A DNA stretch of 45,588 nucleotides, taken from sequence record OZ035804.1; one strand, 5' to 3'. Origin of the DNA: Vectrevirus PDP21P3. The position numbers were made by a program, and so were the translations under genes. The first letter of the stretch is position 1; every line of letters begins with the position of its first letter. Positions 3,901 to 45,430 of this stretch are shown here, in pieces. Under the pieces are notes generated by a model, which had not been told where the DNA came from, searched no databases, and saw only the letters and a list, made by a program, of their open reading frames with translations.

Positions 3901-3923
3901 ATTTACTGGACACTATAGAAGAG
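3901..3923 (+). promoter_or_regulatory. phage RNAP promoter (consensus copy)
   Basis: ATTTACTGGACACTATAGAAGAG, +1 G at 3918, directly upstream of tailspike 1. Confidence 0.7.
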
Positions 3924-4002
3924 ATAAGATAGTGCCGTTCTTTTGAGCGGCCTATTACTAGCCAATCTTCATGGTGAGGGTTGGGAAGTAATAGGAGATA
4001 AA

Positions 4003-5910
4003 ATGGCTAAATTAACCAAACCTAATACTGAAGGAATCTTGCATAAGGAAGACTCTTTGTATGAGTACCTTGATGCGAGAGAGAGTATAGTTTTAACATC
4101 AAAGCCGTTTGGTGCAGTAGGTGATGCTACTACTGATGATACGGAGGTTATAGCTGCTTCACTAAACTCTCAAAAAGCTGTCACAGTCTCAGACGGTGTA
4201 TTCTCTAGCTCTGGTATTAATAGTAATTACTGTAACTTAGACGGTAGAGGTAGCGGGGTGCTAAGTCACCGTTCCAGTACAGGTAACTACTTAGTATTTA
4301 ACAATCTACGTGCAGGTCGCTTAAGTAATATTACGGTAGAGAGTAATAAGGCGACTGATGATACTCAGGGACAGCAGGTATCTCTTGCTGGTGGCAGTGA
4401 TGTTACTGTAAGTGACGTTAACTTCTCAAACGTTAAAGGTACTGGTTTCAGTTTAATAGCATACCCTAATGGTGAGCAACCTAATGGGCTTATGATTAAA
4501 GGCATTCGAGGTAGCTACTCCGGCTATGCTACTAATAAGGCTGCTGGGTGCGTACTTGCTGACTCCTCAGTTAACTCTCTCATAGATAACGTAATTGCTA
4601 AGAGCTATCCTCAGTTCGGAGCTGTAGAGCTGAAAGGTACAGCCAGTTATAACATAGTAAGTAATGTTATAGGGGCAGATTGCCAGCATGTAACTTACAA
4701 TGGCACTGAAGGGCCAATAGCTCCTTCTAATAACCTTATCAAAGGGGTGATGGCTAATAACCCTAAGTATGCAGCGGTTGTTGCAGGAAAAGGAAGTACG
4801 AACTTAATCTCAGACGTGCTCGTAGATTACTCAACTTCTGATGCTAGGCAGGCTCATGGTGTTACCGTAGAAGGGTCTGATAACGTCATAAATAATGTGC
4901 TTATGTCAGGATGTGATGGTACTAACTCTTTAGGACAAGGGCAGACTGCTACAATTGCACGCTTTATAGGTACAGCTACTAACAACTATGCGTCTGTATT
5001 TCCTAGCTACAGTGCTACAGGTGTTATTACTTTCGAATCCGGCTCTACCCGTAACTTCGTAGAGGTAAAGCACCCTGGCAGGAGAAACGACCTTCTCAGT
5101 TCTGCTAGTACTATTGACGGTGCAGCTACTATTGACGGCACTAGTAATAGTAACGTAGTGCACGCACCCGCATTAGGACAGTACATAGGTAGTATGTCAG
5201 GTAGGTTCGAATGGAGGGTTAAGTCCATGTCACTTCCGTCAGGCGTTCTTACCTCGGCTGATAAGTACAGAATGCTTGGGGATGGTGCTGTGTCATTAGC
5301 TGTAGGTGGGGGCACTTCTTCTCAAGTTCGCCTATTTACTTCTGATGGTACCTCTCGTACAGTGTCCCTCACCAACGGTAACGTGCGTCTTTCTACCAGT
5401 AGCACAGGCTATTTGCAGTTAGGTGCTGATGCAATGACCCCAGATAGTACTGATACATACGCATTAGGTTCCGCCAGTAGAGCATGGTCTGGCGGTTTTA
5501 CTCAAGCAGCATTCACTGTTACCTCAGATGCTCGGTGTAAAACAGAACCTCTTACTATCTCAGATGCTTTACTGGATGCTTGGTCTGAAGTTGACTTTGT
5601 GCAGTTTCAGTATTTGGATCGGGTTGAGGAGAAGGGTGCAGACTCAGCGAGATGGCACTTTGGTGTCATCGCTCAGCGAGCTAAGGAGGCTTTCGAACGT
5701 CACGGCATAGATGCACACCGCTATGGCTTCTTGTGCTTCGACAGTTGGGATGATGTATACGAGGAAGATGCCAATGGCTCTCGTAAACTGATTACACCAG
5801 CAGGTTCCCGCTACGGTATTCGTTACGAGGAAGTATTGATATTAGAGGCTGCGTTGATGCGGCGGACTATTAAGCGTATGCAGGAAGCACTAGCTGCCCT
5901 TCCTAAGTAA
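4003..5910 (+). CDS. tailspike 1, pectate-lyase-like beta-helix with C-terminal intramolecular chaperone (S74-like) domain
   Basis: ATG 5 nt after AGGAGA (track start 3943 is a TTG); FGAVGDATTDDTEVI pectate-lyase-type motif; C-terminal ~130 aa with TSDARCK autoproteolysis-type motif as in endosialidase/K5-lyase-type tail proteins. Confidence 0.8.
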   Translation: MAKLTKPNTEGILHKEDSLYEYLDARESIVLTSKPFGAVGDATTDDTEVIAASLNSQKAVTVSDGVFSSSGINSNYCNLDGRGSGVLSHRSSTGNYLVFNNLRAGRLSNITVESNKATDDTQGQQVSLAGGSDVTVSDVNFSNVKGTGFSLIAYPNGEQPNGLMIKGIRGSYSGYATNKAAGCVLADSSVNSLIDNVIAKSYPQFGAVELKGTASYNIVSNVIGADCQHVTYNGTEGPIAPSNNLIKGVMANNPKYAAVVAGKGSTNLISDVLVDYSTSDARQAHGVTVEGSDNVINNVLMSGCDGTNSLGQGQTATIARFIGTATNNYASVFPSYSATGVITFESGSTRNFVEVKHPGRRNDLLSSASTIDGAATIDGTSNSNVVHAPALGQYIGSMSGRFEWRVKSMSLPSGVLTSADKYRMLGDGAVSLAVGGGTSSQVRLFTSDGTSRTVSLTNGNVRLSTSSTGYLQLGADAMTPDSTDTYALGSASRAWSGGFTQAAFTVTSDARCKTEPLTISDALLDAWSEVDFVQFQYLDRVEEKGADSARWHFGVIAQRAKEAFERHGIDAHRYGFLCFDSWDDVYEEDANGSRKLITPAGSRYGIRYEEVLILEAALMRRTIKRMQEALAALPK

Positions 5911-5915
5911 GAAAC

Positions 5916-5940
5916 AGGCAGTGCGTAAGCACTGCTTTTC
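5916..5940 (+). terminator. intrinsic terminator-like hairpin
   Basis: GCAGTGC gtaa GCACTGC perfect 7-bp stem followed by TTTT, 6 nt after tailspike 1 stop. Confidence 0.6.
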
Positions 5941-5995
5941 ACGCAACTTTTCTTAAAGGTTATCATGGTGGTAGCCTTTCAGAAAAGGAGGTTAC

Positions 5996-7792
5996 ATGCT
6001 TCAAAGATTAAGCACTGCCTTGGTGCGGTATAAAAGTAAAATGTCAGGTGCAATAGGTCGTATATTGCAAGAAAGACTAGAAGATACGTTAAATGCAAAA
6101 GACTTTGGTGCAAAATGTAATGGAGTGGATGATGATACAACCCCTCTCAACAATGCAGCAACAGCAGCACGCCTTAAAGGAGTCAAACTCGTAATAACAG
6201 GGTCTTGCCTAACAACTGACACAGTTAACTTTAGAGAGGTACTGCTAGAGGCATCAAGTGCTACGTTTATTATTAAACACGAGGGTGTTGGTGTTATCTT
6301 GGGTGGTAATGCAAGTGTGCACAATAACCCCAAGCAAGAGTTTGGTATGACAGAGAGACTTGTTGGGTCTGCATCTCTAGACGCTCCTGATGTACGTATA
6401 ATTGGTGCCAAGTGCCAACACATTAGCATAGAGAAGTCTGATTACCTTCAGCTATATGCAGATTCAGATGAATCAGTATATGAAAAGGACTACTCTATCG
6501 CGTATTCCACTTTTACCTTAAAGTATGTTAAAACAATCAACATACGCGGGATTAATCGTGGTTGGATTAATGAGAACCAGTTCTTCTTAAATAGAACACA
6601 TTTTGTGACAATACAAGATGGCAATTACTCTCATAACCACAATAAATTCTTTGGTGGCACTATGGAAGAGAAAGGTGCTATAGATATACAGAGAGGTCAT
6701 AATAATCACTTCTTTGGGCTTCGATTCGAAAGAGATGGCTCTAAGCCAGATAGGACACTAGACATCAAGTTTGGTTCTTATACATGGAATAATTCAATTG
6801 AAGCATCGTGGCTCAGCTCTGCTGCATATAGCAACGAACCCTATAACCCAAATAATCTTGTCACTGTTACAGATTTAGGTAGAGGTAATGCTGTACGCCA
6901 TATACAAGAAGATTTAACAGATGAGATCCCTTTGCTTTCACTAAGTGGAAAGGCAGACTACATCTCTAGTACCAACCTAGGTACTGTAAGCCAACCTGTT
7001 GTTATAACTAACTTCCCTAATATATATAATATTAGACACCTAGTATCAAGCAAGTTTTCTGTTGTAAGAAATTTCTACCCTATATGGGAGTCTGGTAATT
7101 TAGAGGTAAGGAATGGAGACTTATTCACATTCTGCTCTGATGTACCTATCTTCCGTATGCGTCTATTTATATTAGATGCGCAAGGTAATGTAATCACTGA
7201 GCAATTAGATGATGATGTATCATTCCCTGGTAGTTCTTGGAATGCACAATTAAGTATGTATACAAATACTACCAATATTGATGTTGCTAAAATACGTGTC
7301 ACTAATAGTTCTCGTATTAAATACATTCGTCTTGTCTTGATGTCTGGTGGTTCATCTCAAGATAGAATCTTTGAATATGCAAGAGTGACTGCAAGATACT
7401 ATAAGTATTCAAGCTCAACACCTCGTAAGAATATGGATGTTGCCTTAACCTCTTGCTCTGCTATGATGCCTTATAAGGGCGATGCAGAGATGCAATATAT
7501 GGGTTACGGTCTGCCTGTTGTTAAGATGGAAGATACGACTAAGAAGGTTAATATAACACGTAATAGGTATTCTGTTATTAATGTGTCTGGTTCTTCTATT
7601 AAGGTAAGGGTTTCAGGTAGTCTTATATCCGCAGATTCTAACGACTTACATCTTGTATATACAGAGGGTTCCGCTAATAAAATTATACCTATTCAGTCTT
7701 TATCGGATGATACTATTACTTTAACTTCTACTGCACCTACTACTATAGTAGCCAATAGCATGGTGGATGTAGTTTGTACAAAGCCGATGTGA
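5996..7792 (+). CDS. tailspike 2 (second receptor-binding/depolymerase-like protein)
   Basis: 598 aa, ATG 4 nt after AAAGGAGG; N-terminal DFGAKCNGVDDDT pectate-lyase-like motif; noticeably AT-rich; no phage promoter of its own. Confidence 0.7.
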   Translation: MLQRLSTALVRYKSKMSGAIGRILQERLEDTLNAKDFGAKCNGVDDDTTPLNNAATAARLKGVKLVITGSCLTTDTVNFREVLLEASSATFIIKHEGVGVILGGNASVHNNPKQEFGMTERLVGSASLDAPDVRIIGAKCQHISIEKSDYLQLYADSDESVYEKDYSIAYSTFTLKYVKTINIRGINRGWINENQFFLNRTHFVTIQDGNYSHNHNKFFGGTMEEKGAIDIQRGHNNHFFGLRFERDGSKPDRTLDIKFGSYTWNNSIEASWLSSAAYSNEPYNPNNLVTVTDLGRGNAVRHIQEDLTDEIPLLSLSGKADYISSTNLGTVSQPVVITNFPNIYNIRHLVSSKFSVVRNFYPIWESGNLEVRNGDLFTFCSDVPIFRMRLFILDAQGNVITEQLDDDVSFPGSSWNAQLSMYTNTTNIDVAKIRVTNSSRIKYIRLVLMSGGSSQDRIFEYARVTARYYKYSSSTPRKNMDVALTSCSAMMPYKGDAEMQYMGYGLPVVKMEDTTKKVNITRNRYSVINVSGSSIKVRVSGSLISADSNDLHLVYTEGSANKIIPIQSLSDDTITLTSTAPTTIVANSMVDVVCTKPM

Positions 7793-7798
7793 GGTAAT

Positions 7799-7948
7799 AT
7801 GCCTTTAATTAAATCAGTTAAGCAAAGTGCTGTACGCCAGAACACAGAAGAACTTATTCAATCAGGACGTGACCCTAAGCAAGCCTATGCGATTGCCAAG
7901 GATGTACAACGTCGTGCTATGAAGAAACCTTCTGCATCTTCTGCGTAA
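7799..7948 (+). CDS. hypothetical small basic protein
   Basis: 49 aa ORF (MPLIKSVKQSAVRQ…), GAGG 4 nt upstream; below the ORF-track length cutoff. Confidence 0.35.
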   Translation: MPLIKSVKQSAVRQNTEELIQSGRDPKQAYAIAKDVQRRAMKKPSASSA

Positions 7949-8147: not shown

Positions 8148-8379
8148 CCAAAGTCAAAATTTTGATGTAGGCGTGTGTCAGCTCTCTCGCCCTCGCCCTC
8201 GCCGGGTTGTCCCCATAGGGTGGCCTGAGGGAATCCGTCGAGGACGGGCAGGGCTGATGTACTCCTTGTACTAGCTTAGTAGTACACAAGGGCAGGCCGT
8301 ACTAGTTAGCTGGTACAGCCTAGTCTTTGCTCATGTACTAGCAAGGTGGAACGCTGGAGAACGCCTAGGACGGCCTAGG

Positions 8380-8890
8380 GATGGCTTAGTGGTGGACAAG
8401 GTGATTACCTTAGTGAAGCCTCTTAGTGCATTCCTGAGGCTATTCAGGACCATTCCTGAGCGTTTGACAGGGTGGGCGTGGGTGGGCTATCTGTTCGTTT
8501 GCTCGCTATCGCTCGCTGCACGCCTGTCGTGTACCTTAGGTTATTCCTTGATGGATAGCTTAGGTTAGCCTTAGTGGACTACCTTAGTTAAAGCCTTAGT
8601 GCTTAGCTTAGTATCAGCTTAGTAGTGTACCTTAGTAAGACTTAGTGTCTTCTCTTAGTGATTGCACATGCAAGCATGTAAGATGCCATTAGGTCGCGGT
8701 CGGTAGACCGCTAAAGAAAGAGAATAGTAATAAGATGCAGTAGGAGGAACACCAGAATCCTAGCCGACCTAGCCTATCCTGGCTCTGTATCTATTGCTTT
8801 TCCTTAGTCTCACATGTTAGACAACCTAGGTTTACCTTAGTAGTTGTGACATGTATCACATAAATAATCTATCTTAGTGAAATTTAGTGT
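8380..8890. repeat. array of short CTTAGT(G)/CCTTAGT direct repeats in non-coding region (likely genome-terminus region)
   Basis: about 20 irregularly spaced copies of cttagt read by eye, plus GC-rich mini-repeats just upstream (ctcgccctcgccctcgcc, gtgggcgtgggtgggc); T7-type genomes carry short repeat arrays next to their terminal repeats. Confidence 0.5.
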
Positions 8891-11552: not shown

Positions 11553-14180
11553 ATGCAGGACTTATACGCTATCCAGCTTCAGCTTGAAGAAGAGATGTTT
11601 AATGGTGGTATCCGTCGCTTTGAAGCAGACCAACAACGCCAGATTGCATCCGGTAATGAATCCGACACGGCATGGAATCGCCGCTTATTGTCTGAGTTAA
11701 TCGCACCGATGGCGGAAGGTATTCAGGCTTATAAGGAAGAGTATGAAGGCAAGCGCGGTCGTGCACCGCGTGCATTGGCTTTCATTAACTGCGTAGAAAA
11801 TGAAGTGGCAGCGTATATCACGATGAAAATCGTAATGGATATGCTTAATAATGATGTGACTTTGCAGGCTATAGCCATGAATGTAGCTGACCGCATAGAA
11901 GACCAAGTGCGCTTCAGCAAGCTGGAAGGACACGCCGCCAAATACTTTGAGAAAGTTAAGAAGTCACTTAAGGCAAGTAAGACTAAATCATATCGCCACG
12001 CGCACAACGTAGCGGTAGTGGCTGAGAAGTCAGTGGCCGACCGTGACGCAGACTTCTCCCGCTGGGAAGCGTGGCCTAAGGATACCTTGCTACAAATCGG
12101 GATGACCTTGCTCGAAATACTGGAGAATAGCGTATTCTTCAACGGGCAGCCTGTTTTCCTCCGCACCTTGCGCACTAACGGCGGCAAGCATGGCGTTTAC
12201 TACTTACAGACTAGCGAACACGTGGGTGAATGGATAACTGCATTTAAAGAGCACGTAGCGCAATTAAGTCCTGCCTATGCGCCTTGCGTTATTCCTCCTC
12301 GTCCGTGGGTTTCTCCGTTTAATGGTGGCTTCCATACCGAGAAGGTGGCGAGTCGTATTCGTCTGGTTAAAGGAAACCGCGAGCACGTCCGCAAGCTGAC
12401 CAAAAAGCAAATGCCAGCGGTTTACAAGGCTGTTAACGCTTTGCAGGCGACTAAGTGGCAGGTTAATAAAGAGGTTTTGCAGGTAGTAGAGGACGTTATC
12501 CGTCTCGACCTTGGTTATGGTGTGCCTTCCTTTAAACCACTCATCGACCGTGAGAACAAGCCAGCTAATCCAGTGCCGTTAGAGTTCCAGCACCTGCGAG
12601 GCCGTGAACTTAAAGAGATGCTAACGCCGGAACAATGGCAAGCCTTCATCAACTGGAAAGGCGAATGTACCAAGCTGTATACCGCTGAAACTAAGCGCGG
12701 CAGCAAGTCGGCGGCAACCGTTCGCATGGTCGGGCAGGCCCGTAAATACAGTCAGTTTGACGCAATATACTTCGTGTATGCACTGGATAGCCGTTCACGC
12801 GTTTATGCGCAATCTAGCACGCTCTCGCCGCAATCAAACGACCTAGGCAAGGCGTTACTGCGTTTCACCGAAGGGCAGCCTCTAAATAGCTCTGAGGCGC
12901 TTAAGTGGTTTTTGGTGAACGGTGCTAATAACTGGGGTTGGGATAAGAAAACTTTCGACGTCCGCACCGCTAACGTGTTAGATGGTGAATTCCAAGACAT
13001 GTGCCGCGATATTGCAGCCGACCCGCTGACTTTTACTCAATGGGTGAATGCTGACTCCCCTTATGGCTTCCTTGCATGGTGCTTTGAATATGCGCGTTAT
13101 CTGGATGCACTGGATGAAGGCACGCAAGACCAATTCATGACGCACCTACCCGTCCATCAAGACGGTAGTTGCTCTGGTATCCAGCACTATAGCGCGATGT
13201 TACGCGATGAAGTAGGTGCGAAAGCAGTAAACCTTAAGCCTTCTGACTCCCCTCAAGATATTTATGGCGCGGTTGCGCAGGTTGTTATCCAGAAGAATTA
13301 CGCTTACATGAATGCAGATGATGCAGAGACGTTCACATCTGGAAGCGTCACACTTACAGGTGCAGAACTGCGTAGCATGGCTAGCGCATGGGATATGATA
13401 GGTATCACTCGCGGATTAACCAAAAAGCCGGTAATGACCTTGCCGTATGGCTCTACCCGCTTAACATGCCGTGAGTCAGTGATTGATTATATTGTTGATT
13501 TGGAAGAAAAAGAGGCACAAAGGGCTATTGCAGAAGGGCGGACGGCTAATCCGGTGCACCCTTTTGATAATGACCGTAAAGATTATTTAACACCGGGCGC
13601 AGCTTATAACTACATGACCGCGTTAATTTGGCCTTCTATCTCTGAGGTTGTTAAAGCACCTATAGTGGCGATGAAAATGATTCGCCAACTCGCACGATTC
13701 GCAGCTAAAAGAAACGAAGGGTTAGAATATCCCTTGCCTACTGGCTTTATCTTGCAACAAAAGATAATGGCTACCGACATGCTACGCGTATCCACTTGCT
13801 TGATGGGTGAAATCAAGATGAGTCTACAGATTGAGACTGATGTAGTGGATGAAACGGCAATGATGGGCGCTGCCGCTCCCAACTTTGTTCACGGGCATGA
13901 TGCTAGTCATCTCATCCTGACTGTATGTGACCTCGTTGATAAGGGCATTACATCCATCGCAGTCATCCATGATTCCTTTGGTACTCATGCAGGCCGTACA
14001 GCAGACCTGCGGGATAGCTTAAGGGCAGAAATGGTGAAGATGTATCAAGGTCGTAATGCCCTGCAAAGCCTGTTAGATGAGCATGAAGAACGCTGGTTAG
14101 TAGACACCGGAATCCAAGTGCCAGAGCAAGGAGAATTTGACCTTAACGAAATCTTAGTATCTGACTATTGCTTCGCATAA
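11553..14180 (+). CDS. single-subunit DNA-directed RNA polymerase (T7/SP6 type)
   Basis: 875 aa (SP6 RNAP is ~874); motifs [18 protein letters not shown]-terminal …CFA; RBS GGGAG. Confidence 0.95.
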
Positions 14181-44100: not shown

Positions 44101-44468
44101 ATCAAGATGAATATTTGGAAGAGAAGTTATCGCCTAAAGGGTTGGCCTTTGGTGCAATGGGTATGATGAGTACAACTGCTGTATTTAGTCTAGGTGGAGA
44201 TTTCTTAGGTGGCCTAGGTGTTCTACCTTCTGAGTTAGTACAATCCCGTTATGAGGCTGGCTTTCAGACTAAGGGTTTGATAGACCAAATACCACTAGTA
44301 GGTGTTGGTCAAGATGCATATCGTTTAGCAGATTCTATAACTAAATACGCAGAGGGTGATACAGAAGGTGTAGATGTGGCACGTAGGGCTTTACGCTTAG
44401 TGCCTCTAGCTAATGTAATAGGAATCCAGAACGCATTGCGTTATGGCTTAGATGAACTGGAGGATTAA
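41160..44468 (+). CDS. internal virion protein C (ejectosome large protein, gp16-like)
   Basis: 1102 aa, position after IVP-B, RBS GGAGG. Confidence 0.7.
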   Translation: MEQDINTNWAGYVQSTPEPFSIEAAPVSAPTIRQRNELQEQVLEAKADADIVGAVGAAFQNEWLAFGGKRWYDRATADFTPQPDFEIQPEQREALRFKYGTDMMQTITEGVRSEDELNFRIQNADEDLERNKRIAQAGWAGSVATIGAAVLDPVGWVASIPTGGAAKVGLVGRAVRGAIAAGVSNAAIESVLVQGDMTRDLDDIMVALGSGMAMGGVIGAVARGRATKLSEQGDDRAASVVRSADAGDQYVRAVADDSIGAMRVKGEEVLTEGAFDISSKGEDLLKTLQREGNTIDMTPRRWAGTLSALGTVVHSSQDASVRGLGARLFESPQGLGAQKASASLMQNTNLNRLKSADMNRFNDGFDLWLKENNINPVAGHTNSHYVQQYNEKVWEAVRIGMDESTPKSIRMAAEGQQAMYREALALRQRSGEAGFEKVKADDKYMPDIFDSMKARRQFGMHDKEDIIELFSRAYQNGSRKVPKEVADDIARAQVNRVVDATLTGRMSFEKAMSGQTKAEYEAIMRKAGFSDEEIEKMVEALDNKETRDNISNRAKMSLGLDVTQEYNGIRMRDFMNTNVEELTDNYMKEAAGGAALARQGFSTYQAALSAIDLVERNARNAAKDTKAHAQFEAESAKIRQSEPDYKKAQEKIEELKKRLKLKEKDEAAGLAIDEEIRQMREGLRLIMGKSIDSNPQDLSTKMLRRGRDITGVLRLGQMGFAQLGELANFMGEFGIAATTMALGKQFRFTSKALRNGDGFFRDKNLAEVERMVGYIGEDNWLTTKGARPDEFGDVTTVRGMMAHFDQSMNSIRRAQTNLSLFRMAQGSLERMTNRQIALSFIDHLEGKKIIPQKKLEELGLTQEFMTNLQKHYDANSKGSGLLGFDTMPYAMGETLANAIRRKSGLIIQRNFIGDEGIWMNKALGKTFAQLKSFSLVSGEKQFGRGIRHDKIGLAKKTAYGFALGSIVYAAKAYVNSIGREDQDEYLEEKLSPKGLAFGAMGMMSTTAVFSLGGDFLGGLGVLPSELVQSRYEAGFQTKGLIDQIPLVGVGQDAYRLADSITKYAEGDTEGVDVARRALRLVPLANVIGIQNALRYGLDELED

Positions 44469-45430
44469 TGAGTTATACTTTCACAGAACATATAGCCAAC
44501 GGTACGCAAGTAACCTATCCCTTTAGCTTTGCTGGTAGGGATAAAGGTTATCTTCGTGCCTCAGATGTGATAGTGGAGTCTCTTCAAGGTAACACTTGGA
44601 TTGAGGTTACATCTGGCTGGCAACTAACTGGCACGCACCAGATTACTTTTGATGTAGCACCAGTTGCAGGTTTGAAGTTCCGTATTAGAAGGGAAGTACA
44701 AAAGGAGTATCCATACGCTGAGTTTGACCGTGGTGTTACCTTGGATATGAAGTCTTTAAATGGTTCTTTCATTCATATACTGGAGATTACACAGGAGTTA
44801 CTTGACGGGTTTTATCCAGAAGGATACTTCATTAAACAGAATGTAAGCTGGGGCGGCAATAAGATTACTGATTTGGCTGATGGCACAAATCCGGGAGATG
44901 CAGTAAATAAAGGGCAGCTTGATGCCATCGACAAGAAGCATACAGATTGGAACGCCAAACAGGACATTGAGATTGCTGGCCTTAAGGCTGGTATGACTTC
45001 TGGTATTGCGCACAGAACTGTTCCTTGGTACACGATAGCCCAAGGTGGTGAGATTTCCGTAAAACCACCTTATGAATTTCAAGATGCACTAGTTTTCCTT
45101 AATGGGGTGTTGCAGCACCAAATTGTAGGCGCATACTCTATAAGCAACAACACTATCACTTTCGCAGAGCCGCTTGTGGCTGGTACAGAGGTGTATGTGC
45201 TGATTGGTAGTCGTGTGGCTACATCTGAACCTAATATTCAGTTAGAGTTGAACTTTGACTTAGTAGAAGGCCAACAAGTAGTACAGATTGGCTCTGCATT
45301 TAAGTACATTGAGGTCTACCTTGATGGATTATTACAACCTAAACTTGCTTATCAGGTAGACGGTGACATTGTTACTTTCTCAGAGGGAGTGCCAGAATGC
45401 CGGATGACTGCTAAGATTATCACAGCATAA
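44468..45430 (+). CDS. tail fibre-like adaptor protein (gp17 N-terminal-domain-like)
   Basis: TQVTYPFSFAGRDKGYLRASDVIV and ITDLADGTNPGDAVNKGQLDA resemble the T7 gp17 N-terminal tail-attachment region; only 320 aa with no long fibre shaft. Confidence 0.7.
   Translation: MSYTFTEHIANGTQVTYPFSFAGRDKGYLRASDVIVESLQGNTWIEVTSGWQLTGTHQITFDVAPVAGLKFRIRREVQKEYPYAEFDRGVTLDMKSLNGSFIHILEITQELLDGFYPEGYFIKQNVSWGGNKITDLADGTNPGDAVNKGQLDAIDKKHTDWNAKQDIEIAGLKAGMTSGIAHRTVPWYTIAQGGEISVKPPYEFQDALVFLNGVLQHQIVGAYSISNNTITFAEPLVAGTEVYVLIGSRVATSEPNIQLELNFDLVEGQQVVQIGSAFKYIEVYLDGLLQPKLAYQVDGDIVTFSEGVPECRMTAKIITA

Follow-up and report, generated by a model that had tools for sequence, protein, structure and literature searches.

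The genome of Vectrevirus PDP21P3 (sequence record OZ035804.1), analysed here as a single window of 45,588 nucleotides, carries between positions 3901 and 7792 two adjacent genes that a sequence-only reading had taken for consecutive depolymerase-like tailspikes, and the question raised by this locus is what each of the two spikes is and which of them sets this phage apart. Both plus-strand open reading frames (ORFs) are present (4003-5910 and 5996-7792), and gene order, docking peptides and adaptor protein all fit the dual-tailspike module of the K1-5/SP6 type that had been proposed. The whole is very probably the receptor-recognition module of a K1-5-type podophage, in which tailspike 1 is a K5 lyase and tailspike 2 a beta-helix depolymerase that has been swapped into the second position (slot 2). 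Tailspike 1, its chaperone, the promoter, the hairpins, the adaptor and the two-site docking logic are already known from phages K1-5 and K5A; the new element is the cassette that fills slot 2, an uncharacterised beta-helix depolymerase-like spike. The two genes and their principal parts are as follows.

4003..5910, plus strand: tailspike 1, orthologue of the K5 heparosan lyase KflA/gp46, 635 amino acids, 67.2 kDa precursor (sequence identity, PDB entry 2x3h, phrog_14895)
5524..5907, plus strand: C-terminal intramolecular chaperone (Peptidase_S74) of tailspike 1, residues 508-635 (PF13884, alignment with 3gud)
5996..7792, plus strand: tailspike 2, predicted beta-helix spike of phrog_18162, 598 amino acids, 66.5 kDa, no chaperone domain (profile match, AlphaFold2 (AF2) model)
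6113..6895, plus strand: predicted right-handed parallel beta-helix of tailspike 2, about residues 40-300 (AF2 secondary structure, invariant columns)
6917..7789, plus strand: two predicted C-terminal all-beta domains of tailspike 2, about residues 308-470 and 490-598 (AF2 confidence, pLDDT, mostly >88)

Judged by its sequence, tailspike 1 is KflA, the known K5 lyase, with identities of 96.7% to the protein of phage K5A and 97.0% to gp46 of K1-5. It matches phrog_14895 over its full length and aligns with E = 0 both to PDB entry 2x3h ('K5 lyase'; residues 1-508 of tailspike 1) and to PDB entry 9vvr (residues 34-634), which has the same body behind a longer N-terminus. The description 'depolymerase-like' was thus right in calling this an enzyme spike but too vague for a protein of approximately 97% identity to a known lyase. 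Relative to KflA there is a single three-residue insertion (ESI, residues 27-29; nucleotides 4081-4089) and about 18 substitutions. The insertion lies shortly after the docking heptapeptide and is not found in KflA, K1-5 gp46, the phage LL11 protein or a metagenomic copy; residues 16-17 and 157-161 also differ as blocks. The mechanical ORF list placed the start at a TTG at 3943, which we rejected as an artefact in favor of the ATG at 4003, since the latter begins the peptide MAKLTKP and is preceded by a Shine-Dalgarno sequence, AGGAG, at 3993-3997. The protein is conserved in more than 100 phage records, and its beta-helix would be expected to cleave the heparosan (K5) capsule by beta-elimination. 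A search of NCBIfam returned zero matches for either tailspike.

The C-terminal intramolecular chaperone and SDARCK autocleavage motif, which had been noticed from the letters alone, are both borne out. The Peptidase_S74 family PF13884 ('chaperone of endosialidase') matches residues 508-568 with 55.9 bits (cut-off 22), and the Ser-Lys (S-x4-K) motif SDARCK occupies residues 508-513 (nucleotides 5524-5541) at the very start of that match. Ser508 aligns with residue 1 of the released chaperone domain of phage GA-1 (3gud, SDERHK) and with the mutated serine of 3gw6, and the 2x3h construct terminates at the same position. By calculated masses, a predicted cut before Ser508 would convert the 67.2 kDa precursor into a 52.5 kDa spike and a 14.7 kDa fragment, in agreement with the 67 kDa and the mature 52 kDa published for ORF46 of K1-5 (review, PMC5380687). 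We infer autoproteolytic release of the chaperone at this site, a process established for this protein family: the S74 domain would assist trimer folding and then remove itself before Ser508. In 9vvr, the K5 lyase body and chaperone are carried on a longer N-terminal region of ~240 residues, giving an 843-residue spike, a hint that one enzymatic body has passed between adaptor-mounted spikes and spikes that are anchored directly.

Tailspike 2, which is preceded by a Shine-Dalgarno sequence (AAGGAGG, 5985-5991), is a different kind of protein. It matches phrog_18162 ('tail fiber protein') with E = 3.7e-170, residues 24-596 covering positions 212-795 of the 800 in the profile. The fold prediction called for by the earlier reading was carried out as an AF2 monomer model built on 32 homologues (pLDDT 88.3, pTM 0.75, first 22 residues disordered), and a spike with a right-handed parallel beta-helix (pectin lyase-like fold) is confidently predicted by it. 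Ten residues within the predicted helix are invariant in the 32 homologues (W190, N192, E193, Y211, H213, N214, N216, E224, R243 and E245), and both C-terminal all-beta domains are kept in full-length homologues. These relationships, together with the demonstrated activity of one relative that is described below, make tailspike 2 a putative depolymerase. Neither an S74 Pfam match, nor a propeller match, nor an S-x4-K motif of the SD.R.K type was found in it. The possibility that it is an endosialidase variant was rejected, since similarity to the K1 endosialidases ends at residue 63 and the model is a beta-helix, as was the possibility that tailspikes 1 and 2 are paralogues, pairwise comparison having given no significant similarity beyond the cap motif.

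This cap motif, DFGA/FGA...DDT, had been taken as a signature of the pectate-lyase fold. It is indeed present in both spikes (FGA...DDT at residues 36-47 of tailspike 1 and 37-48 of tailspike 2), and within the tailspike 2 family profile it is solely the DFGA...DDT cap that matches beta-helix enzymes of solved structure, the matching structures including GH55 glucanases, polygalacturonases, epimerases and other tailspikes. However, the body of the K1-5 endosialidase also opens with DFGAKGDG, although without the DDT, and the catalytic domain of endosialidases of this type is described as a beta-propeller (Guelin-collection preprint); the same motif is found in another slot-2 spike that has a weak propeller-domain Pfam match. 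Because a propeller-type endosialidase and a weakly propeller-like spike carry it, the motif is a generic N-terminal cap that marks where the spike body starts, and is not a mark of the fold.

Attachment of the two spikes to the virion involves three further features.

44468..45430, plus strand: adaptor protein, gp37-like, 320 amino acids, putative carrier of both tailspikes (PF03906, phrog_2710)
4003..4023, plus strand: heptapeptide MAKLTKP, putative docking peptide for the middle site of the adaptor (same seven residues as in K1-5 gp46)
5996..6028, plus strand: undecapeptide MLQRLSTALVR, putative docking peptide for the C-terminal site of the adaptor (likeness to the K1-5 gp47 peptide)

The adaptor, which has no receptor-binding body, matches the T7 tail-fibre N-terminal domain PF03906 with 27.2 bits (cut-off 25.2) as well as phrog_2710; the protein of phage EC120 is 100% identical to it, and adaptors of at least 99% identity occur in 27 records whose slot-2 spikes differ. 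In the passages of Latka et al. (2019; PMC6872550) that cite Leiman et al. (2007), gp46 of K1-5 is described as docking to the middle of adaptor gp37 via MAKLTKP, and gp47 as docking to the C-terminal part of gp37 via MIQRLGSSLVK. The undecapeptide of tailspike 2 has six of 11 residues identical to the latter and three conservative changes. By analogy, the first seven residues of tailspike 1 would dock its trimer onto the middle site of the adaptor, while tailspike 2 would dock onto the second site via its gp47-type peptide and may thereby provide the virion with a further glycan specificity, distinct from both K5 and K1. A metagenomic SP6-like contig, L007 (SRR25644130_960), has a different arrangement: its member of the tailspike 2 family (P0002, 8001-9803; 57% identical) sits in slot 1, with an N-terminus that looks chimeric, MAKLT (the start of the slot-1 heptapeptide) being fused to RVTDWLVKVKSK, which is of the slot-2 type. 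The slot-2 gene of that contig (9890-10984) begins with MLQRLGASLVKFKSK, so that both of its spikes would carry slot-2-type peptides, raising the question of how they share two adaptor sites.

The 3,892-bp region from 3901 to 7792 is 100% identical to a second PDP21P3 record (OZ035769.1) and 98.5% identical to PDP21P6, and 113 further phage records cover only its first ~55%, a part comprising tailspike 1 and the intergenic region together with the opening codons of tailspike 2. The body of tailspike 2 is present in only two of 50,697 phage records, namely PDP21P3 and PDP21P6. DNA alignments with K1-5, K5A, LL11, LI10_P5 and two metagenomic contigs demonstrated near-identity through the 85-nucleotide intergenic region and the first ~20 nucleotides of the slot-2 gene; identity then fades over the next ~130 nucleotides, after which the bodies are unrelated. 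Identity to K1-5, LL11 and LI10_P5 returns abruptly at the ATG of the following gene.

7799..7948, plus strand: gp48-like small ORF, 49 amino acids, whose start codon is the right cassette boundary (phrog_2423, resumption of DNA identity)

The borders of the cassette, as judged against K1-5, LL11, LI10P5 and the metagenomic contig L008, are therefore at about 6016 and 7799. At the protein level, the first 62 residues of tailspike 2 are 44-51% identical to those of other slot-2 spikes with unrelated bodies. In K1-5 slot 2 is filled by an endosialidase, and in LL11 and LI10_P5 by an unrelated 570-residue spike that has only those 62 residues in common with tailspike 2 (47% identity). The family to which the body belongs is large, with 589 clusters at E <= 1e-3 and 79 at E <= 1e-30 among 1.84 billion representatives, and its members carry P22 head-binding, CBA120 TSP-N or tail-collar N-termini. 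Full-length relatives of 48-52% identity are tailspikes of P22-like (strain 20AR0300) and epsilon15-like E. coli prophages (an O166:H15 strain and others). A 92%-identical metagenomic copy and that of PDP21P6 keep the gene intact. A conserved small ORF, 94-105 residues long, comes directly after the tailspike 2-like gene in the E. coli prophages (L012, 7424-7741; L013, 6218-6502; L004, 12342-12626); it has no equivalent after tailspike 2 and could be a tailspike-associated accessory factor.

Base composition separates the two genes in the same manner. Tailspike 2 has a G+C content (GC) of 0.380 and a third-position G+C content (GC3) of 0.299, the lowest of the 31 ORFs, and constitutes the most AT-rich stretch of the genome, only 0.4% of segments of equal length being as low (genome GC 0.451, standard deviation 0.025). 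Tailspike 1 has a GC of 0.452, which is the genome mean, and its GC3 of 0.362 is about one standard deviation below the ORF mean of 0.413. Because the tailspike 2 family is AT-rich in every context examined, for example 0.395 in a prophage whose other genes average 0.484, the low G+C is a property of the cassette and not of this phage. The sequence-only reading had described both genes as AT-richer than the core genes and both as horizontally exchanged host-range cassettes; each statement holds for tailspike 2, with its cassette borders, exchanged body and AT-rich composition, and fails for tailspike 1, with its average G+C and its presence in more than 100 records. Only tailspike 2, then, looks like a recent import. 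We propose that it arrived by homologous recombination, with the 85-nucleotide intergenic region plus the first codons serving as one arm and the start of gp48 as the other, and that the incoming body displaced the previous occupant of slot 2. Members of the same body family circulate in phages of Pasteurella and Vibrio as well as in E. coli prophages of the P22-like and epsilon15-like groups.

The signals that would govern expression of the two spikes lie outside the exchanged part.

3901..3923, plus strand: phage RNA polymerase promoter of the SP6/K1-5 type, ATTTACTGGACACTATAGAAGAG (exact genome consensus)
5917..5940, plus strand: GC-rich hairpin, GGCAGTGC-GTAA-GCACTGCU, with U-run, a terminator-like or attenuator element (RNA fold)
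5947..5987, plus strand: second, longer hairpin, whose 3' arm extends up to the 5' edge of the tailspike 2 Shine-Dalgarno sequence (RNA fold)

As the sequence-only reading had it, tailspike 1 has its own promoter and is followed by a terminator-like element, and tailspike 2 has no promoter. The promoter is an exact copy of a consensus that occurs at eight sites in the genome with at most three mismatches, against none in 100 shuffles, and the K5A record Y10025 has a promoter annotated at the same position. No promoter-like site with at most three mismatches was found between 3923 and the genome end; the sole plus-strand match to the promoter core inside tailspike 2 (6655) has mismatches at three of 14 positions, which is chance level. 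The first hairpin (5917-5936, followed by UUUU) comes after the tailspike 1 stop codon, is identical in K1-5, K5A and the metagenomic phage L007, and is annotated as a terminator in the LL11 record; the second hairpin is also conserved in K1-5 and K5A. Together they give a minimum free energy fold of -36.2 kcal/mol (z = -6.3) for 5905-5999, and promoter, Shine-Dalgarno sequence and both hairpins are unchanged relative to K5A and K1-5. Speaking against a terminator function is the U-run of the first hairpin, which is only 4 nucleotides long and for that reason the simple terminator scan caught the hairpin (5918-5935) only on the minus strand; that scan and a sigma-70 promoter scan were at chance level and are uninformative for a transcription unit of a phage RNA polymerase. 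The hairpins are candidates for a role in termination, RNA stability or translational control.

We envisage that one late transcript would start at the 3901 promoter, run through tailspike 1, pass in part beyond the conserved hairpin and continue via tailspike 2 and two small ORFs to the genome end. Since the same 85-nucleotide element precedes the essential endosialidase of K1-5, readthrough must suffice for virion assembly. Lower expression of the slot-2 gene, as implied by the earlier reading, is conjectural at the level of sequence. The promoter core, GGACACTATAGAAG, recurs in exact form at 128-141, inside a small-terminase-like ORF (30-329), and at 2226-2248, directly after the stop codon of the large terminase and ahead of a hairpin at 2320-2339, so the late region appears to be cut into several short transcription units.

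Host range provides a further view of the two spikes. PDP21_P3 is described as a 45,588-bp Vectrevirus with isolation strain E. coli PDP21, which belongs to phylogroup D and sequence type (ST) 69, has serotype O77/O17/O44/O106:H18 and is typed as K5 (Guelin-collection preprint). The plaque-assay matrix of that preprint covers 403 Escherichia strains, whose K types were assigned in silico only; all statements on lysis made here refer to 49 of its 96 phage columns, LI10_P3 and LI10_P5 being outside these. Within them, PDP21_P3 lyses 12 of the 403 strains (ECOR-11, -49, -50, -55, -64, IAI68, IAI79, IAI81, NILS25, NILS27, PDP21 and NILS01), corresponding to 11 of the 19 K5 strains versus one of the 384 non-K5 strains (Fisher p = 9e-16). 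This K5-restricted host range fits the K5 lyase. The single non-K5 host is NILS01 (ST69, O25:H18, typed as K4). Six K5-typed strains (ECOR-51, IAI78, IAI80, NILS12, NILS18 and NILS19) resist PDP21_P3, some of which are lysed by other phages with a K5 lyase: ECOR-51 scores 4 with T205_P4 and P5, and NILS18 (ST69 O17:H18 K5, the same type as host PDP21) is lysed by PDP21_P6 and not by P3 or P5. Determinants besides the K5 lyase therefore shape the host range. The Kayfunavirus PDP21_P1, likewise isolated on PDP21, has a set of K5 hosts that largely coincides with that of PDP21_P3, an overlap that adds to the hint drawn from 9vvr that the lyase body moves between spike architectures.

Several results weigh against tailspike 2 as an active depolymerase with a specificity of its own. 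Its match to Pectate_lyase_3 (PF12708) is below threshold, at 13.2 bits versus a cut-off of 27, and is confined to residues 32-56, the cap motif, and no other Pfam family is above threshold; neither the single sequence nor the 32-sequence profile matches an entry in the PDB over the body, but only over the N-terminal peptide or cap; and there is almost no activity beyond the K5 strains, a second specificity being detectable on one strain only. The spike might accordingly be a structural or binding-only protein, a place-holder at the second adaptor site comparable to K1E's truncated second spike, given that K5 explains almost the whole host range and no curated enzyme family matches it. We consider this very improbable, because the protein is of full length with a confidently folded beta-helix, because a block of Glu, His, Asn and Arg residues is invariant in the 32 homologues and an active depolymerase, and because the gene is intact in the 92%-identical metagenomic copy and in PDP21P6. 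An O-antigen-specific tailspike, like SP6 gp46 and the spikes of P22, HK620 and Sf6, that would serve against unencapsulated or O-antigen-exposed strains is a possibility to be taken seriously, if a doubtful one. Among full-length proteins, its nearest relatives (48-52% identity) are tailspikes from E. coli prophages of the P22-like and epsilon15-like groups. Phages of both groups classically have spikes that cut O-antigen, and Foldseek matches of the model include the O-antigen spikes of Det7, HK620, Sf6 and CBA120. Yet P22-like prophages can have capsule-specific spikes too, specificity is not transferable at about 50% identity, and in the columns compared PDP21_P3 lyses neither the non-K5 O17-group strains ECOR-44, ECOR-47, IAI17, IAI24 and H442 nor the non-K5 strains ECOR-15, ECOR-52 and ECOR-54, which are O25, the O type of NILS01. 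The O17-group O-antigen of the host itself was rejected as the target, since it is not supported by the non-lysis of those O17-group strains.

The lysis of NILS01 is the only experimental hint on the role of tailspike 2, and it raises the possibility that the spike depolymerises fructosylated chondroitin, the E. coli K4 capsule, a substrate that would make PDP21_P3 a phage of dual K5 and K4 specificity, with two cutters of glycosaminoglycan-like capsules. We regard K4 as a weak lead and this substrate as unlikely. NILS01 is the sole non-K5 strain lysed by PDP21_P3, P5 and P6, all of which bear tailspike 2 (score 2 each), and it is lysed by none of PDP21_P1, PDP21_P8 (a Kagunavirus), T205_P4 and T205_P5, all four of which lyse K5 strains; of these, the T205 phages have the same K5 lyase gene in their genomes but lack the body of tailspike 2. 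The chance expectation that the one non-K5 host would be typed as K4 is 11/384 = 0.029. The only characterised relative, Dep-ORF8 of Pasteurella phage PHB02, degrades the capsule of P. multocida type A. The type A capsule consists of hyaluronan, and C4 of the hexosamine is the one position at which it departs from the backbone of chondroitin. Against this, ten of the 11 K4-typed strains were not lysed, the association concerns one strain and is post hoc (p = 0.029), the K types are in silico, and the identity to Dep-ORF8 is only 27%; moreover, NILS01 has the ST69 background and outer-membrane-protein variants of host PDP21, which could alone explain its permissiveness. Considering the prophage relatives, an O-antigen target is as plausible as K4.

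For the preferred reading, a swapped beta-helix depolymerase beside a resident K5 lyase, the consequence is a general one. Retargeting of K1-5-like phages leaves the adaptor, the K5 lyase, the hairpins and a docking peptide of roughly 11-60 residues fixed; what is exchanged, as one block flanked by two short homology arms, is the second spike's body. The exact junctions (about 6016 and 7799) might be used to engineer new specificities into Vectrevirus therapy phages. If K4 were the substrate, tailspike 2, a distant relative of the PHB02 enzyme, would be the first phage protein identified as depolymerising the K4 capsule of E. coli, phrog_18162 would be a family of capsule enzymes acting on glycosaminoglycan-like polymers (with heparosan and chondroitin both attacked by PDP21_P3), and a new tool enzyme for chondroitin-type polysaccharides as well as a typing reagent would be at hand. 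With an O-antigen as its target, the spike would add another case to a familiar theme.

The remainder of the genome is of the SP6/K1-5-like type (Autographiviridae, Molineuxvirinae). The window is a circular permutation, with the terminase (326-2227), the lysis genes and the tailspikes lying before the early region and the RNA polymerase (11553-14180). K1-5 aligns, at its right end, up to about 8200-8390 of the window, within a segment (8150-8640) of G+C-rich short repeats (CTCGCCCTCGCCCTCGCC, followed by repeated CTTAG/CCTTAGT motifs) that is probably the terminal-repeat and early-promoter region. Between the terminase and the endolysin are two tandem paralogous small ORFs (2322-2660 and 2673-2960), both of phrog_2725, the LL11 equivalents of which are annotated 'acetyl-CoA acetyltransferase, most likely a duplication region'.

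Among known systems, the closest in organization is K1-5 itself (gp37 adaptor, gp46 K5 lyase, gp47 endosialidase), which is of the same genus and shares with PDP21P3 the gene order, the promoter, the 85-nucleotide two-hairpin intergenic region, the gp48/gp49 tail end of the genome, the adaptor type, the docking-peptide logic and a gp46 97% identical to tailspike 1. It differs in slot 2, where K1-5 has an 811-residue endosialidase with an S74 chaperone, whereas PDP21P3 has a 598-residue beta-helix protein without chaperone, only the first 40-60 residues being related. KflA of K5A (2x3h) agrees with tailspike 1 at 96.7% identity and has the same SDARCK motif, C-terminal domain, upstream promoter and downstream hairpins; tailspike 1 differs by the ESI insertion at 27-29, after the docking peptide, and 18 substitutions. 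The Vectreviruses LL11, LI10_P5 and EC120 share with PDP21P3 the K5 lyase, the intergenic region, the adaptor (at 100% identity in EC120) and the type of slot-2 N-terminal peptide, but the body of their slot-2 spike is an unrelated 570-residue protein, and its recombination junctions coincide with those of PDP21P3.

For the imported body, the parallels lie outside this genus. Residues 129-596 of tailspike 2 are homologous to gp17 (Dep-ORF8) of Pasteurella phage PHB02 (27% identity, E = 1e-54), with the motifs GW[IV]NEN, HNHN and RFER in common. PHB02 gp17 removes the capsule of P. multocida type A (PMC6090149) and is the only relative of tailspike 2 with demonstrated depolymerase activity; it is, however, a 968-residue protein with an N-terminal anchor of the T7 gp17 type, and its host genus and substrate are other than those of tailspike 2. 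The spikes of P22-like and epsilon15-like E. coli prophages (20AR0300; O166:H15 strain JNE070796) are more similar, at 48-52% identity over essentially the whole body including both C-terminal domains, and differ in that they belong to temperate phages and begin with a P22 head-binding or epsilon15-type N-terminus where tailspike 2 has the undecapeptide of the K1-5 type.

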